A model generated the notes under the pieces. That model was not told where the DNA came from. It saw nothing but the letters and a program-made list of their open reading frames with translations, and searched no databases. From positions 1 through 11,090 of the IMG/VR virus record IMGVR_UViG_2737471840_000003: a stretch of 11,090 nucleotides of DNA, one strand, 5' to 3'. A program made the position numbers and the translations under genes. The stretch is from a virus (Duplodnaviria; Heunggongvirae; Uroviricota; Caudoviricetes). Shown piece after piece: positions 1,217 to 6,276 of this stretch (its first letter is position 1; each line of letters starts with the position of its first letter).

Positions 1217-1514
1217 GTTTAGACCTCGATATTTTGAAAATCTGAACAACGTTACCGCGTGTTTTAATAACCGCGGCAAGCATGACAGCGTTGATAATGA
1301 CCTCAGATAAATCCACAGCCATTGGCGTGCGTAACCAGATTGCATAAGCGACACGAACTGGAATGCTGGCCGCAGCAACAATCAGGAAATAAGCAAGCCA
1401 CCCACCCCATCGCCTGTGTTGAGAACCGTTTCTCCGAAATGTGGCAACTCGAACTGCTATACCGGCGCAAATAACCGCATTGGTGGTAAGCAAAAAAAGC
1501 TCATGAGTTACCAT
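1206..1514 (-). CDS. Small membrane protein, putative holin (lysis cassette)
   Basis: 102 aa with an ATG start at 1514 and a strong SD (GGGGAG about 8 nt upstream). It has 2-3 hydrophobic segments ([51 protein letters not shown]) and a charged C-terminus. Its 3' end overlaps the endolysin start by 11 nt. The function is assigned from position and topology only. Confidence 0.65.
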
Positions 1515-1905
1515 CGTCTTTTCTCCCCGGAATTAACTCGCGTGGATTATCGGAACGGTGATAGAGCCAGATCCCAATTCGCACAGCGACGATTGCTGAC
1601 ACAAATGCACCGGCAGAGAAAACAATCCCTTTCTCGAAAGAATCCTGTGTGATTGTAGGGATCAGGCTGGCTATGCCGATAAGAATTGATGCTGCTGGTT
1701 TGTAGAATAGAAGTCCGCAGAGAAAGCTAAGCATCGACAAGAGCACGCGACGACGAATTGGATACTCAACGGCAGAGGTAATAAATATTACCGCGCCGGA
1801 TAAAGCACCAAGAGCGACCTCTGGAGGAACCCCGGCAATGACAGCAGCCAGAGAACCCATGCTAAGCCACTGATTTAAAGACTCACTGGTTAGCTGAGCT
1901 GACAT
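1501..1905 (-). CDS. Membrane protein, putative holin or antiholin partner (lysis cassette)
   Basis: The track ORF 1501..1914 starts at GTG; the first ATG is at 1905 with GGTGG 5 nt upstream, giving 134 aa. It has about four hydrophobic segments and a charged C-terminal tail ([19 protein letters not shown]). A second Met at residue 16 (MGSLAAV..) sits just before the first TM segment. It overlaps the next membrane-protein gene by 14 nt. Confidence 0.55.
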   Translation of the reverse strand: MSAQLTSESLNQWLSMGSLAAVIAGVPPEVALGALSGAVIFITSAVEYPIRRRVLLSMLSFLCGLLFYKPAASILIGIASLIPTITQDSFEKGIVFSAGAFVSAIVAVRIGIWLYHRSDNPRELIPGRKDDGNS

Positions 1906-2001
1906 ATCAGCCACCGTTTACTGTGCATAATGAACCCCCTTAGTTGGTAAGTCCATCATACACAATAAACCATATATGGATAAGTTTACCTCGGATAACT
2001 C

Positions 2002-2030
2002 TTAACTAAATTACCTTATGGGTATATATT
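2002..2030 (+). promoter_or_regulatory. Candidate sigma70-type promoter for the acyltransferase gene
   Basis: TTAACT (2002..2007), a 17-nt spacer, then TATATT (2025..2030), about 50 nt upstream of ATG 2079 in a very AT-rich divergent intergenic region. Hexamer matching only, and AT-rich DNA gives many chance matches. Confidence 0.3.
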
Positions 2031-2078: not shown

Positions 2079-3068
2079 ATGAATGAGAAGAACTATGGTG
2101 TAGTTTTAGCTCGTTTCATCGCCATTGTGCTGGTGGTGTTGCTGCATGTTGCTGCTGGTCCAGTTGGTGCAAAGTCTTCGCCTGATTGGGATTGGGCTAA
2201 CGTATATAGTGCCATATCAAAGCAATGCATTGGTATTTTCATAGTTATAACAGGGTTTCTTTACTACCATAAAAAGAAATTCGAATTCTATGATTACATT
2301 AAAAAGGGGTTTAATGTATTATTTGTCCCTCTTGTATTTTGGTGGGTAATATATGCATCTTATTACATTATATTTAAAGATGCTTCCGTAAGCAGCTTTA
2401 ATATTATGAAGCCATCTGCTGTCCATCTATGGTTTATGTATCATTATATTGCGATTTACATGTTTCTCCCGATGATAATTATTGGATGCCAACGCATGGA
2501 TTTGCGGTATAACGTGATGATATTTTTAATTCTATTCTATGGGAATTCTGTACACCCACAGCTAAAGAATTTCATTCCTAATGCACCATCTATAGATATT
2601 CCATTTGTAAGTACATTAATGTTCTATATTTTTGCCGGATGTATAGTTGCAAGACTTGAAAGCCATATCATAAAATTACGCGCTTTCATTTCGTTAACTG
2701 CTGTTATCCTTGCGGTTATATGTGTCTTTACAAATAAGGCTATATTGATTCATGGGATCAAAGGAGTAAACCTAAGCAACTTTAGCCCCATTGTTGGCAT
2801 GACAGCAATAGCAACAACCTGCGCCTGCATTGGATACGCAGACAGAATAAGCAAAAATGCAAATAAACTTGTAACTCTAATTTCCGAATATGCATTTGGA
2901 ATTTATCTTATACATCCTATTATTATATTTATAACATGGAAAATAGCTCCAGTATCAAATTATGCATGGGGAATACCTGTTGCAACTATATTTTATGTCT
3001 TTGCGTCCATGTTGATAGCTGTGATACTTTCAAAAACTCCTTTGTTAAATAGGGTGATAGCCAAGTAA
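2079..3068 (+). CDS. Acyltransferase family 3 integral membrane protein, probable O-antigen/polysaccharide O-acetyltransferase (lysogenic-conversion moron)
   Basis: 329-aa ORF that is hydrophobic throughout, with about 10 predicted TM segments. The N-terminus (YGVVLARFIAIVLVVLLHVAAGP) carries the conserved Arg and His positions I associate with acyltransferase-3 enzymes. Its length is close to short phage Oac-type acetylases. It lies on the opposite strand to all flanking phage genes, is very AT-rich (about 27-32% GC on hand-counted lines), and ends at a bidirectional terminator. Confidence 0.8.
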   Translation: MNEKNYGVVLARFIAIVLVVLLHVAAGPVGAKSSPDWDWANVYSAISKQCIGIFIVITGFLYYHKKKFEFYDYIKKGFNVLFVPLVFWWVIYASYYIIFKDASVSSFNIMKPSAVHLWFMYHYIAIYMFLPMIIIGCQRMDLRYNVMIFLILFYGNSVHPQLKNFIPNAPSIDIPFVSTLMFYIFAGCIVARLESHIIKLRAFISLTAVILAVICVFTNKAILIHGIKGVNLSNFSPIVGMTAIATTCACIGYADRISKNANKLVTLISEYAFGIYLIHPIIIFITWKIAPVSNYAWGIPVATIFYVFASMLIAVILSKTPLLNRVIAK

Positions 3069-3097
3069 AAAAAAAGCCCCTCTACGGGGCATTTTTT
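3067..3097. terminator. Bidirectional rho-independent terminator between convergent acyltransferase and tailspike genes
   Basis: An A-run (3067..3075), a stem GCCCC (3076..3080) / GGGGC (3086..3090) with loop TCTAC, then a T-run (3092..3097). It reads as hairpin plus U-tract on both strands. It overlaps both stop codons. Confidence 0.65.
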
Positions 3098-5780
3098 AAA
3101 TAGCAGAAATAATGAAACATAACATCTCATCATATCTCAAAGAGTAACCATCACCAGCTTCGCAACCTGAGAATGTCATGATTCCATTTTCATCATATTC
3201 TGGTTCCTTCTTATCCCACTTATCGTAGCAAACCATCCCATAACGCATGGGATCTAGCCCTTCATCCTCGAACGCAGAGATAACATCCTGGACAATTGCA
3301 CCTATATGATATCTTGCGCCATCGCCTTTAATAGCTACCGCATCCTTCATTCTGTACCGACAAATCATTCCCTTAATCTTGATAGCCACGCGCTTTTCGG
3401 CTTCACTTATATCCTCGAAATCTGTCTTCTTTCTTCTGTCAGATGTGTTAATGGAACCAGAATCGGCGTAGACCTGAGTCCATTTAAATGATGCACTCCC
3501 GTTAGACTGCGCGCTAGCGACGCCAGGCAATACCTGATCACTGTAAATCTGAAGAGATTGAGTCCCACCACTTTCACTTGTCACTGTCGGATTTGTGAAG
3601 AAGAAAATAGCATTAGGGTTTAAAGTACCCCCTGAGCCGATAACAAGAGGCGTAGAGGTACCGGTATAGTTTATTTGAGCGATGCCAACTTCTTTTCCTG
3701 TTGACGTTGTAAATGATATTTTGCCTAAACCACCTGAATTATTAATATTAAGCTTTGTTCCTGACAATGAGCGCCTTGTAGCTGTCCATGACCCAATGCT
3801 GCCAACTACGGAATAAATTTCTAGCCCAAGTACAGTACCGGAGGATTCAATAATGAATCCTGCATTGTTCAGATTAGTAACATGGTAAATTTGTCCTGTT
3901 ACGTAGTTAAGACCAGGTATCGTGGTGAGCGAAGGAGCAATGGTTGAAAACCAAGAGAACTCAGTTATGTTTAATGAAGCCATTAAATCAAGAATTTGAG
4001 AAACACTGCTGAAGACTGTATTTAAGACTGGATCGCGCAATTCCCCACGCTCCGAACGCATGAGCCTATTAAATCCATATGTTGGGAGAGGACAATATCC
4101 GGAAGCGGCATCCAGCATGTTAAATCCATCCCGTGAAAACTCCCTCATTATAACAATGCCATTGGGTGTGCTAGGAGATGATTCAGCCATATCACCGATA
4201 AGAATTGAATGGATAGTGCCGTCAGGGTGCTTGAAACATCCCTCTGACTCTGTTCTTGAGACGGTGCAACCGTTTGATGCCAGATAAGTCATCAACTTAT
4301 CTGATTTCACAACAGAGTGGTCTATTAACTCACCAGAGAGTGACACTCTGAGGACTCCGTAATCATGAACAGGGTATTTTGCATCATCAAATGTAGGACG
4401 ATAACTGCCACCTACGCCTATATGAAGGATCCCATTTTTGTATGCTATACCCTGAATTTTCCATACCATGTAATAGTAGGTAGGGGAGAGCTCTGGAGTT
4501 GCAAACCCTGTAAGCATCTGAGAGACATTTATTGTTCCCTGCTTCTCACCTGTATCAAGACGATAAGAATTTATAACAGTCTGTGATTGTGACAATCCTA
4601 CTGGTGTCGCGTTTAATGTGCAGAAGAGTAAATTACCATCAATGCACATATGTGATCCAGCCGACTGAATTGTCGTTATTGTGTGCCCTGAAAGCGTGCT
4701 ACCTGCTGCGGGTAATGTGGTTATGTCATAATAATAAACAAAATCATCCCCAAGACGTCTGTCATACAATCTACGTGATGAACTTCCGCCATATATAGCC
4801 ACAGACTGATTACTACTGTTTGGACTATAAAACCACGTTACTTGCTCTCCTGCCTGGTTATAAACAACTATAACCCTAAGCGCCCCTCCAGCATTAGGCA
4901 CATAGTTAATGAAGAGTAGACCATCATCATCATAGTCAGCACCCTGCGGGTATATGATGCTTCCAGCTCCAATTGCCGCCAGTGCATCAGAATACCCATC
5001 GAACTGAAATGGAAGTTTGTAGATTATTTTTTTCCTGAAATTCTGATCTTTAATGGCACTACCAACAGTACCGTCAGGATACTGGATAGAATCGCTATAA
5101 CCTGATAACCCGGCACCTGTTGGTTTCACTAATTCAACAAGAACATCAGTGGCAGAACCAGATGGCGGCAATGTTACAAAAGGAGACCCACTATTATCGA
5201 AGGCTATTATCTTGTTCGCCCTGACAGCGGCAGATGGAAGTGTGGGTATAGGTTCAGGTGTTCTTAGCGTTCTGTTGAGATTGGTTTCAGAAATACTGTC
5301 TACATAGTTCTTTGTAGCAGCATCTTGCGGCCGAGATGGATCCCTGAGATTTCTGATATAGTTGCCCAGGGCGTCATAATAGTTGGCTACAAAGGATGGT
5401 TTTCTTAACGACAGACTAAACCAACTTCTTACCTGCTGAACAAGCATAGTTAACTTATCAAATGCATCCTCATGCACTTCTGCAAAAAACTTCCCCTGGT
5501 TCCTTAGGTCTGTTTCTTGGGTAACCGGCAACTCTCTTGAAATAGAAATCTTATACCCATTGCCTAAAGCAGTTGATAAAACAACATTCCCCCCCGTGTA
5601 TCCACCAGTACCTGTAATCGAATAATCAGTATCAAGCACAAGAGTGGTTATATTTTCATCCAGATCAACAACCTGCACAACCAGGTCTGACTTCTGAAAA
5701 ATTCGAAAGGTATAAGGAAATGAAGTCGTAACGCCATTACCTGTATATTCGTTATGGTCAACTTCGGTTGAGACCGTCAT
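3096..5780 (-). CDS. Tailspike / tail fibre protein with C-terminal intramolecular chaperone (peptidase S74-like) domain
   Basis: 894-aa ORF with ATG at 5780 and SD GGAG 9 nt upstream. The N-terminal roughly 120 aa (MTVSTEVDHNEYTGNGVTTSFPYTFRIFQKSDLVVQVVD...) resemble the conserved particle-binding module of epsilon15-like tailspikes as I recall it. The C-terminal 115 aa begin SDRRKKTDFEDIS and contain YHIGAIVQDV, which fits the S74 autoproteolytic chaperone pattern. The central part is Ser/Thr/Gly/Asn-rich and looks beta-rich. Confidence 0.9.
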   Translation of the reverse strand: MTVSTEVDHNEYTGNGVTTSFPYTFRIFQKSDLVVQVVDLDENITTLVLDTDYSITGTGGYTGGNVVLSTALGNGYKISISRELPVTQETDLRNQGKFFAEVHEDAFDKLTMLVQQVRSWFSLSLRKPSFVANYYDALGNYIRNLRDPSRPQDAATKNYVDSISETNLNRTLRTPEPIPTLPSAAVRANKIIAFDNSGSPFVTLPPSGSATDVLVELVKPTGAGLSGYSDSIQYPDGTVGSAIKDQNFRKKIIYKLPFQFDGYSDALAAIGAGSIIYPQGADYDDDGLLFINYVPNAGGALRVIVVYNQAGEQVTWFYSPNSSNQSVAIYGGSSSRRLYDRRLGDDFVYYYDITTLPAAGSTLSGHTITTIQSAGSHMCIDGNLLFCTLNATPVGLSQSQTVINSYRLDTGEKQGTINVSQMLTGFATPELSPTYYYMVWKIQGIAYKNGILHIGVGGSYRPTFDDAKYPVHDYGVLRVSLSGELIDHSVVKSDKLMTYLASNGCTVSRTESEGCFKHPDGTIHSILIGDMAESSPSTPNGIVIMREFSRDGFNMLDAASGYCPLPTYGFNRLMRSERGELRDPVLNTVFSSVSQILDLMASLNITEFSWFSTIAPSLTTIPGLNYVTGQIYHVTNLNNAGFIIESSGTVLGLEIYSVVGSIGSWTATRRSLSGTKLNINNSGGLGKISFTTSTGKEVGIAQINYTGTSTPLVIGSGGTLNPNAIFFFTNPTVTSESGGTQSLQIYSDQVLPGVASAQSNGSASFKWTQVYADSGSINTSDRRKKTDFEDISEAEKRVAIKIKGMICRYRMKDAVAIKGDGARYHIGAIVQDVISAFEDEGLDPMRYGMVCYDKWDKKEPEYDENGIMTFSGCEAGDGYSLRYDEMLCFIISAI
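3099..3443 (-). other. Predicted S74-type autocleaving chaperone domain of the tailspike (C-terminal 115 codons)
   Basis: Begins at the Ser codon (3441..3443) of the SDRRKK motif and runs to the last sense codon. By analogy with endosialidase and T5 L-shaped fibre chaperone domains, cleavage is expected at this Ser. Confidence 0.6.
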
Positions 5781-5834
5781 GTTAAATCTCCAGATAGTCG
5801 CAGCACCCGTTGCGCCGCATATCCGGTTATTCTA

Positions 5835-5899
5835 TTACCTGAAAAACCACATATGGATAGATAAACCATAAATACGAACAGATATTACCTTTCAGGTGA
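5835..5899. promoter_or_regulatory. Inverted-repeat element in the divergent intergenic region upstream of the tailspike
   Basis: TTACCTGAAA (5835..5844) and TTTCAGGTGA (5890..5899) are inverted 10-bp arms with one mismatch, 45 bp apart. The right arm also forms a local hairpin ACCT-TTC-AGGT (5887..5897). They sit 55-120 nt upstream of the tailspike ATG. Function unknown. Confidence 0.3.
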
Positions 5900-5975
5900 T
5901 TCGCAAAACGTGCTGGATAGCAAACAAATTATTTGCTACTGTATAAATATACAGTTATTGCATGGAGAAGATAAG

Positions 5976-6233
5976 ATGCAGCAGTATCACTATCCACTGG
6001 AAGACGGATTTACCGAAAGGATTCACACGCCGGGAGGCGTCAGGTCACTGGTGGAGGGATCGCACTTGATGAAATTACTCCGGGATCTCGATAAGGATGG
6101 ATTTAATGTCGATGGCCCACTTGCCGAACTGACTGCACTGATTAACTACGTCACCAGCTCACAGATGTCTATGCAGGATCTGCAAACACATCTCGACTAT
6201 TGTGCCGAACAATTACGAAAACAAATCCGGTAA
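5976..6233 (+). CDS. Hypothetical small protein (85 aa), orphan plus-strand gene between virion genes and tailspike
   Basis: ATG at 5976 with SD GGAG 8 nt upstream. The track ORF 5910..6233 starts at GTG with an implausible N-terminus. A TGTATAAAT element at 5940..5948 is -10-like. GC content matches the phage core (34/60 on line 6001). Stop TAA is at 6231..6233, followed by the hairpin at 6241..6256. I recognise no family for MQQYHYPLEDGFTERIHTPGGVRSLVEG.... Confidence 0.5.
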   Translation: MQQYHYPLEDGFTERIHTPGGVRSLVEGSHLMKLLRDLDKDGFNVDGPLAELTALINYVTSSQMSMQDLQTHLDYCAEQLRKQIR

Positions 6234-6240
6234 ATTTAAG

Positions 6241-6256
6241 GGCCGCGAAAGCGGCC
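6241..6256. terminator. GC-rich hairpin, probable terminator for the convergent small genes and the upstream virion operon
   Basis: GGCCGC-GAAA-GCGGCC is a perfect 6-bp stem with a GNRA-type loop. On the minus strand it is followed by CTTAAATTT, a weak U-tract; there is no T-run on the plus strand. It lies between the stop of the 85-aa plus-strand ORF and the stop of the 46-aa minus-strand ORF. Confidence 0.4.
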
Positions 6257-6276
6257 TGTGACATGTCACACTCAAG

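Follow-up and report, generated by a model that had tools for sequence, protein, structure and literature searches.

Gene content and layout of the window

The window, by which we mean the whole stretch of 11,090 nucleotides analysed here, shares 93-95% identity with the Escherichia phages PAS61, phiV10 and HEMP4; for Enterobacter phage Tyrion and the Salmonella phages SPN1S, SPC32H and epsilon15 the figure is about 80%. These identities assign it to a temperate podophage of the epsilon15/phiV10 type (genus Uetakevirus), of which it forms the late region. The late genes are located on the minus strand, with the virion genes running leftwards from 8901, and there are two divergent intergenic regions, each lying between a minus-strand late gene and a plus-strand accessory gene; the first-pass annotation had described this layout correctly. 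The genes and signals that frame the two regions are:

1905..1501, minus strand: gp23-like gene of the lysis cassette
2079-3068, plus strand: accessory O-acetyltransferase gene, oac
3076-3090: bidirectional intrinsic terminator between the convergent 3' ends of oac and the tailspike gene (GCCCCTCTACGGGGC; both strands have T-runs)
5780..3096, minus strand: tailspike gene
5939-5954, plus strand: near-consensus LexA box CTGTATAAATATACAG, over the ant promoter
5976-6233, plus strand: accessory antirepressor gene, ant (85 aa)

The terminator at 3076-3090 separates the tailspike unit from the lysis unit and, because it closes the former, the lysis cassette needs either a promoter of its own or antitermination. 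Between the tailspike and lysis genes the gene content varies greatly: oac, gtrABC, a polymerase accompanied by its inhibitor, or no gene at all may be present there.

On the other side of the tailspike gene, the CTGTAT...ACAG of the LexA box is invariant in relatives, and the product of ant is 88% identical to SPC32H Ant. A LexA box over the ant promoter and so close an Ant homologue imply, at the level of sequence, that the window's phage has a Rep-Ant-LexA induction switch; the primary papers on SPC32H Rep/Ant are reportedly those of Kim & Ryu (2013) and Kim et al. (2016). A conserved block, TGCTGGATAG (5911-5920), resembles the -35 region of ant. Downstream of the gene, an Rfam scan gave a sub-threshold 'Histone3 stem-loop' match at 6215-6261 on the minus strand (20.4 bits, 34 being needed), which falls on a terminator-like GC hairpin (6241-6256) and was discarded as chance.

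TTACCT is a half-site of the repressor operator

All eight strings reported by the first-pass annotation lie at the positions given there, and TTACCT occurs twice in each intergenic region as it had stated. The GenBank record of epsilon15 contains seven 'protein_bind: repressor' features, the consensus of which is the 17-bp palindrome ATTACC-N5-GGTAAT; by comparison with this consensus, TTACCT is a half-site of the epsilon15-type repressor operator. The operator part of the present analysis is therefore already known from the epsilon15 annotation. TTACCT is found eight times in the window against 4.1 expected, and four of these occurrences are inside the two intergenic regions, which make up about 3% of the window. 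They belong to the following sites:

5884-5900: 17-bp operator ATTACCTTTCAGGTGAT, one mismatch to ATTACC-N5-GGTAAT, containing the TTACCT at 5885-5890
5834-5839, minus strand: invariant half-site GGTAAT, abutting the tailspike -10 and overlapping the TTACCT at 5835-5840
2010-2026: degenerate operator-like site ATTACCTTATGGGTATA, two mismatches, containing the TTACCT at 2011-2016
1985-1990, minus strand: isolated half-site GGTAAA, 5 nt upstream of the first copy of the core motif described below and overlapping the TTACCT at 1986-1991

The site at 5884-5900 aligns column for column with the annotated epsilon15 repressor site at 19895-19911. At the position of 2010-2026 relatives have ATCACC-N5-GGTAAT, and the epsilon15 orthologue (24703-24719), which is unannotated, matches the consensus at 16 of 17 positions. 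The number of operator sites with at most two mismatches expected in the window is 0.47. The half-sites are conserved to different degrees: in 21 of 50 distinct relatives a GGTAA is found no more than 15 nt upstream of the lysis core, so that the half-site there is semi-conserved, and among tailspike copies GGTAA is placed exactly 5 nt after GGTT in 58/59.

The immunity regions of epsilon15, phiV10 and PAS61 hold clusters of sites of the ATTACC-N5-GGTAAT type. The Rep protein of SPC32H is reported to recognise palindromic sites in the form of a tetramer, in which the two members of a DNA-binding pair belong to different dimers, and Ant dismantles this tetramer (PMC9638917). The rep gene of the present phage is located outside the window. 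The sites of the window are, in type, identical to the 17-bp inverted repeats that serve as Rep operators in SPC32H and epsilon15; unlike the operators of the immunity regions, they belong to the late region, where they precede putative late transcription starts by about 70 bp. To our knowledge, Rep binding at such late-region sites is predicted in silico only.

The degenerate operator 2010-2026 falls within the spacer and -10 of a predicted oac promoter, TTAACT-17-TATATT (window 2002-2030, plus strand). Rep binding there, if real, would repress oac, a gene expected to be on in lysogens; the outer half of the operator is weakened in the window's phage, where it reads TATACC as opposed to ATCACC or ATTACC.

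A directional core motif conserved upstream of late genes

The second element shared by the two regions is the sequence CCAYATATGG, which, as the comparison of relatives indicates, is part of a directional core, nCATATRNGGTT(T), read on the late-gene strand. The copies and related strings in the window are:

1967..1979, minus strand: core copy 1, CCATATATGGTTT, upstream of the lysis cassette (22.2 bits with a position weight matrix, PWM)
5844..5856, minus strand: core copy 2, CCATATGTGGTTT, upstream of the tailspike gene (22.3 bits)
5818-5828, plus strand: inverted partial core, CATATCCGGTT, mirroring copy 2 across the tailspike -10
5861-5870, plus strand: second occurrence of ATAAACCATA, in a variable spacer and judged to be chance

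When 1915-2078 and 5781-5976 are aligned locally, the best match is AAACCAYATATGGATA, with 15 of 16 positions identical, and its score was reached by 22 of 1000 dinucleotide shuffles. Taken as a pair the two copies are thus only marginally similar, and the case for the core rests on its distribution and conservation. The pattern CAYATNNGGTT has three matches in the window, the third being the inverted partial core, against 0.22 expected, and none of 200 shuffles reached three. The inverted partial core is confined to the E. coli phage group and is absent from sequences of the Salmonella/Enterobacter group.

The core was found at orthologous positions in all 11 aligned annotated phage records and, among distinct IMG/VR upstream sequences, in 56/57 for the lysis genes, 66/68 for the tailspike gene and 59/59 for gp3. 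The C, A, T and A of CATAT and the GGTT are essentially invariant, while the two central positions and the outer C vary; among tailspike copies the latter can be C, T, A or G. Two variants prevail among 50 distinct lysis sequences, CCATATATGGTTT (28) and CCATAAATGGTTT (12). This conservation is asymmetric, and the palindromy of CCAYATATGG is thus probably incidental. The significance that the first-pass annotation had given to the near-palindromic shape was consequently not borne out, an invariant GGTT standing opposite a variable outer C. The similarity that it had seen between CCATATATGGATAAG and CCACATATGGATAG is real; what is conserved, however, runs into GGTTT and not into GATAAG, and a GATAAG/GATAG tail beside the core is kept in the E. 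coli group only.

A similar distinction applies to ATAAACCATA, which had been noted in both regions: the copy at 1965-1974 is the core itself, whereas that at 5861-5870 is not conserved. The closest relatives have point-changed versions of this stretch, ATAACACATA in phiV10 and ATAACCCATA in TL-2011b, and the version of the window is present in just one of 61 distinct IMG/VR tailspike upstream sequences. On this comparison the copy at 5861-5870 is due to chance or specific to a lineage.

In three complete genomes, PWM matches of at least 15 bits are exclusively intergenic. The three strongest, all of them on the late strand, precede the gp3, tailspike and lysis genes; in shuffled genomes 0.6-1 match is obtained even at 11 bits. 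The complete genomes therefore contain a third strong copy, before the gp3/portal block. Both points on which the first-pass annotation had made its reading depend, the frequency of the motif over the genome and its presence in relatives, were settled in its favour: the motif is not spread through coding DNA, its strong copies being intergenic, and it is present at equivalent sites in related phages. The core is a conserved cis-element that, as far as we could find, has not been described.

Two weaker copies (15.8-17.5 bits) are located beside operators in the early region, one in the gp39/gp40 intergenic region of epsilon15 and one upstream of gp42, with no -10 at a matching distance. These early-right copies are found at 33728-33763 and 35906-35984 in epsilon15 and at 33111-33145 and 35069-35147 in phiV10, where each follows directly after an annotated terminator. 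A full operator-like site is present within 3 nt after their GGTTT; in the site before gp42, the right half also serves as Shine-Dalgarno sequence for the gene that follows.

Module architecture and -10 hexamers

Along the late strand, both regions show the same order: operator, variable spacer, core, short spacer, -10-like hexamer, leader and gene. Operator and core are separated by 30 nt at the lysis genes and by 27 nt at the tailspike gene of the window, by about 27-31 nt overall, and by 39-40 nt at gp3 in other genomes; the operator lies 28-29 nt upstream of the core in all 66 core-bearing tailspike upstream sequences. The gap between core and hexamer is 7-10 nt, or 6-9 nt when counted from the final T of the core. 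From the end of the operator to the start of the -10 the distance is exactly 49 nt in both regions of the window and in both regions of epsilon15, so that the predicted starts lie about 70 bp downstream of the centre of the operator. The hexamers are:

5829-5834, minus strand: TAGAAT, -10 of a putative tailspike promoter, predicted start near 5822
1955-1960, minus strand: TATGAT, -10-like hexamer of a putative lysis promoter, predicted start near 1948

Among 59 distinct tailspike sequences the hexamer is TAGAAT in 49, TAAAAT in six, TACAAT in three and TATAAT in one; positions 1, 2, 4, 5 and 6 of TAnAAT are fixed and position 3 takes all four bases. Position 3 is the least constrained in a -10, and variation confined to it fits a real promoter; we regard this as the strongest single argument that the predicted tailspike promoter is genuine. 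The A at position 2 and the T at position 6 that are conserved in a sigma70 -10 are present in TAnAAT, the form of 59/59 tailspike sequences, and in the TATGAT (36) or TATAAT (one) of 37/50 distinct lysis sequences. In the leader lineage of EC.W1-9 and phiv142-3 the lysis hexamer decays to CGTAAT, CATGAT, CATAAT or CATGGT. The lysis genes of this lineage follow genes of the same strand, with no accessory gene of opposite strand upstream; where such a gene is present, TATGAT is kept. Decay of the hexamer in the former context is what relaxed selection would produce if the promoter had become dispensable.

A sigma70 -35 was not found: 16-18 nt upstream of the hexamers the TTGACA-like candidates, TCCATA and TTATCC, have at most three of six matches, and a consensus promoter scan detected no minus-strand promoter in either region. 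The core itself was rejected as either hexamer. Read as a sigma70 -10, it has no frame in which all relatives retain both the A of position 2 and the T of position 6 and, as a sigma70 -35, it has at most three of six matches with inconsistent spacing to the -10. The distance from the C of CATAT to the -10 is 18 nt for the lysis genes, 19-21 nt for gp3 and 21 nt for the tailspike gene; the 3-nt offset between lysis and tailspike copies is awkward for a single activator geometry.

Upstream of gp3 there is also a conserved leftward promoter, TTGACA-17-TACCTT, with its -10 inside a repressor operator (epsilon15 2931-2970, phiV10 3251-3290, minus strand). It points at an opposite-strand accessory gene, away from the late genes. 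In 55 distinct sequences the spacer varies, as is typical of the footprint of a promoter.

Other readings of the core were discarded. Sites for the host factors IHF (WATCAANNNNTTR), DnaA (TTATCCACA, as DnaA-box), CRP and PhoP are window-specific partial matches, seen by eye, that are lost in relatives. A mini-ORF starting from the ATG in the core (MVYCV*, MWFFR*) is not kept in the tailspike copies of the Salmonella group or in the lysis copy of epsilon15. A hairpin in the tailspike leader, formed by the core and its inverted partner, exists in the E. coli group only and lacks covariation.

An RNA hairpin in the lysis leader

Copy 1 of the core overlaps a further predicted structure:

1912-1974, minus strand: long RNA hairpin of the lysis leader, stem of about 27 bp (-35.7 kcal/mol, z = -6.0)

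The 5' base of this hairpin is the GGTTT half of core copy 1, and its 3' base holds part of the GGTGG Shine-Dalgarno sequence; the stretch 1967-1974 pairs with the surroundings of the latter, which is thus partly sequestered. The stem is kept across 49 sequences, with GC changed to AU at one pair in 10 sequences, CG to UA at another in six, and many wobble exchanges. It corresponds to a near-perfect RNA duplex of at least about 20 bp that is conserved, with 18 consensus pairs and two-sided changes at two of them, and compensatory changes maintain it also where TATGAT decays. The orthologous stretch of epsilon15 is annotated 'RNaseIII'. No Rfam family matches the hairpin, the single sub-threshold match in the window being the chance one on a terminator hairpin.

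The hairpin forms only in transcripts that start upstream of about 1974. Since a transcript starting downstream of TATGAT lacks its 5' arm, the hairpin would concern read-through transcripts, and some transcripts must start upstream. It explains why copy 1 is under additional constraint, but accounts neither for the conserved CATAT nor for the remaining copies of the core.

Probable internal restart promoters as the best explanation

We consider it slightly more probable than an even chance that the two cis-elements form a repeated operator-core-(-10) module, and that this module corresponds to repressor-controlled internal 'restart' promoters of the late region. From the sequences, their distribution, the pattern of conservation and the spacing we infer promoter activity, Rep binding and a factor acting on the core. 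According to this model, opposite-strand accessory genes and terminators would cut the late operon into blocks, and the modules would most likely be internal sigma70-dependent promoters that restart transcription at the tailspike gene and at the lysis cassette, a third copy being located before gp3/portal. The core, at -34 to -19, would stand in for the missing -35 and would probably be a contact for RNA polymerase or for a candidate accessory factor. The operator at about -70, together with the half-sites beside the -10 and start, would allow the prophage repressor Rep to silence each late unit directly. A position at -70 is not a classical one for repression, and silencing would proceed by looping or by a block of read-through. 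The 'common operator or late-promoter element' proposed by the first-pass annotation holds in both its halves, although these refer to different motifs: TTACCT is the operator half-site, and the core belongs to the late-promoter side.

A more specific form of the restart-promoter reading can be formulated, which we find rather doubtful: nCATATRNGGTT may be the recognition element of an undescribed class of Uetakevirus middle/late promoters without a -35, with a putative phage or host factor bound at about -28 and, in the lysogen, direct silencing of each unit by a Rep tetramer bridging the distal operator (about -70) and the proximal half-site at the -10 or start. In this form of the reading, late control would be a matter of dispersed repression and activation, as opposed to one antiterminated operon.

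As regards such a factor, the obvious candidate was epsilon15 gp49, the last gene before terS, which belongs to PHROG 536 ('transcriptional regulator'), and by inspection its product has a ribbon-helix-helix-like N-terminus and a Cys-rich C-terminus with a Cys cluster. The gp49 family was rejected as partner of the core: Pectobacterium phage ZF40 has a homologue that is 70% identical, and no core was found in the first 35 kb of this phage, the stretch examined, which holds the gp49 homologue and the terminase-to-tail genes. Co-occurrence with the core, as for a cognate activator of the P1 Lpa or T4 MotA type, is thus not seen for the gp49 family. Directly after the gp49-family gene, overlapping or following its stop codon, the otherwise unrelated ZF40 and the epsilon15-like phages have in common the palindrome TGTGACATGTCAC(A) (stretches 39610-39672 and then 1-47 in epsilon15, 39095-39104 and then 1-125 in phiV10, 14942-14960 in ZF40). 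In the epsilon15-like phages an intrinsic terminator and a tandem pair of operator-like sites come next, ahead of terS. This layout resembles a Q-type late promoter with its terminator, and it points away from gp49 as the partner of the core.

Alternative explanations

The core may instead be another kind of protein-binding site, for example an auxiliary operator. In this case CCAYATATGG would be of the form CC-N6-GG and related to the Rep operator, which is CC-N5-GG; the second DNA-binding unit of a Rep tetramer, or the Cro-like gp39, would bind it, and it would act by promoter occlusion or by looping to the flanking operator and not as a promoter element. Most strong cores are close to operators or half-sites: an operator precedes them by 27-39 nt, and the GG of the palindrome is followed after 6-7 nt by ATTACC or GGTAAT. 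For occlusion, the 3-nt offset to the -10 would be irrelevant. Two DNA-binding pairs are present in the Rep tetramer (PMC9638917), and the distances between the centres of operator and core, 40.5, 42.5, 43.5 and 52.5 bp, correspond to 3.9-5.0 helical turns; this phasing is nevertheless a post-hoc observation on four values. The pattern of conservation speaks against such a site, since the core is conserved asymmetrically and the operator is symmetric, and the core has none of the TAA/TTA flanks that define the operator. Moreover, 26 of 56 lysis copies have no operator upstream, and the immunity regions show weak core-like matches (11-12 bits) and no strong copy. We regard an auxiliary operator as unlikely.

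The chance is smaller still that the copies are unrelated and their similarity coincidental, with the GGTTT of the lysis copy kept as the base of an RNA hairpin, for RNase III or translational control, and the tailspike copy kept for another reason. The marginal pairwise similarity (22 of 1000 shuffles) agrees with such a coincidence, as does a strong hairpin with compensatory changes that pairs 1967-1974 with the Shine-Dalgarno region. Yet in the lysis copy CATAT is conserved without being part of the main stem, the third strong copy, before gp3, has the architecture of the tailspike copy, and the strong copies are all intergenic and all on the same strand.

It is very improbable that the motifs are boundary sequences for recombination in tailspike or serotype-conversion module swaps with no regulatory role: the similarity among relatives does break directly upstream of the lysis core, and the gene that separates the tailspike gene from the lysis cassette varies greatly, but 13 bp are too short for efficient homologous exchange, the tailspike core is inside a block with variable spacers on both sides, indicating selection on the element itself, and strand and distances to operator and -10 are fixed. 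Only a part of the first-pass suggestion of a 'footprint of module recombination' stands, namely the breakpoints just upstream of the lysis copy, whereas the fixed geometry favours function.

Implications and comparison with known systems

No description of late-gene transcription in epsilon15-like phages was found in the literature, and the papers on ZX5 and phiV10 contain no promoter mapping. The present data suggest that the late region could consist of several terminator-bounded units, each headed by an operator-core-(-10) module, and not of one operon. If internal restart promoters are indeed present, the module would explain how serotype-conversion genes can be present in opposite orientation inside the late region. 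This is a modest regulatory detail and not a new type of system. Phages of the epsilon15 type (phiV10, SPC32H, SPN1S) serve as reporter and biocontrol phages and as a model for the Rep-Ant-LexA switch; the 13-bp core and the 17-bp operator are short targets for mutagenesis, and the modules are candidate late promoters for reporter insertions.

The hairpin of the lysis leader is comparable to the RNase III hairpins of T7 intergenic regions and of the lambda N leader, which likewise have a long stem. Unlike in those processing sites, the predicted hairpin here involves copy 1 only, and of that copy only the GGTTT half.

As for the operators, the C1 operators of P1 and the 'stoperators' bound by gp71 of mycobacteriophage L5 are likewise dispersed sites that head many units, including late genes. 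Between the terminator and terS of epsilon15 and phiV10 there are two sites for which only a block of elongation makes sense, as is the case with stoperators. The sites described here differ in being palindromic, stoperators being asymmetric and orientation-dependent, and their role as roadblocks is putative.

The closest parallels for the core are the activator-dependent promoters of other phages. P1 late promoters have an Lpa box centred near -22, and T4 middle promoters a MotA box near -30. In these systems, and in the late promoters of Mu and P2, a good -10 is likewise combined with no recognisable -35 and with a short conserved element in the -35/spacer zone, and this element is repeated before each late unit, as is the core in the epsilon15-like phages. 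Unlike the Lpa and MotA boxes, to which it is unrelated in sequence, the core varies by 3 nt in its distance to the -10, and the units that it would control also carry repressor operators.
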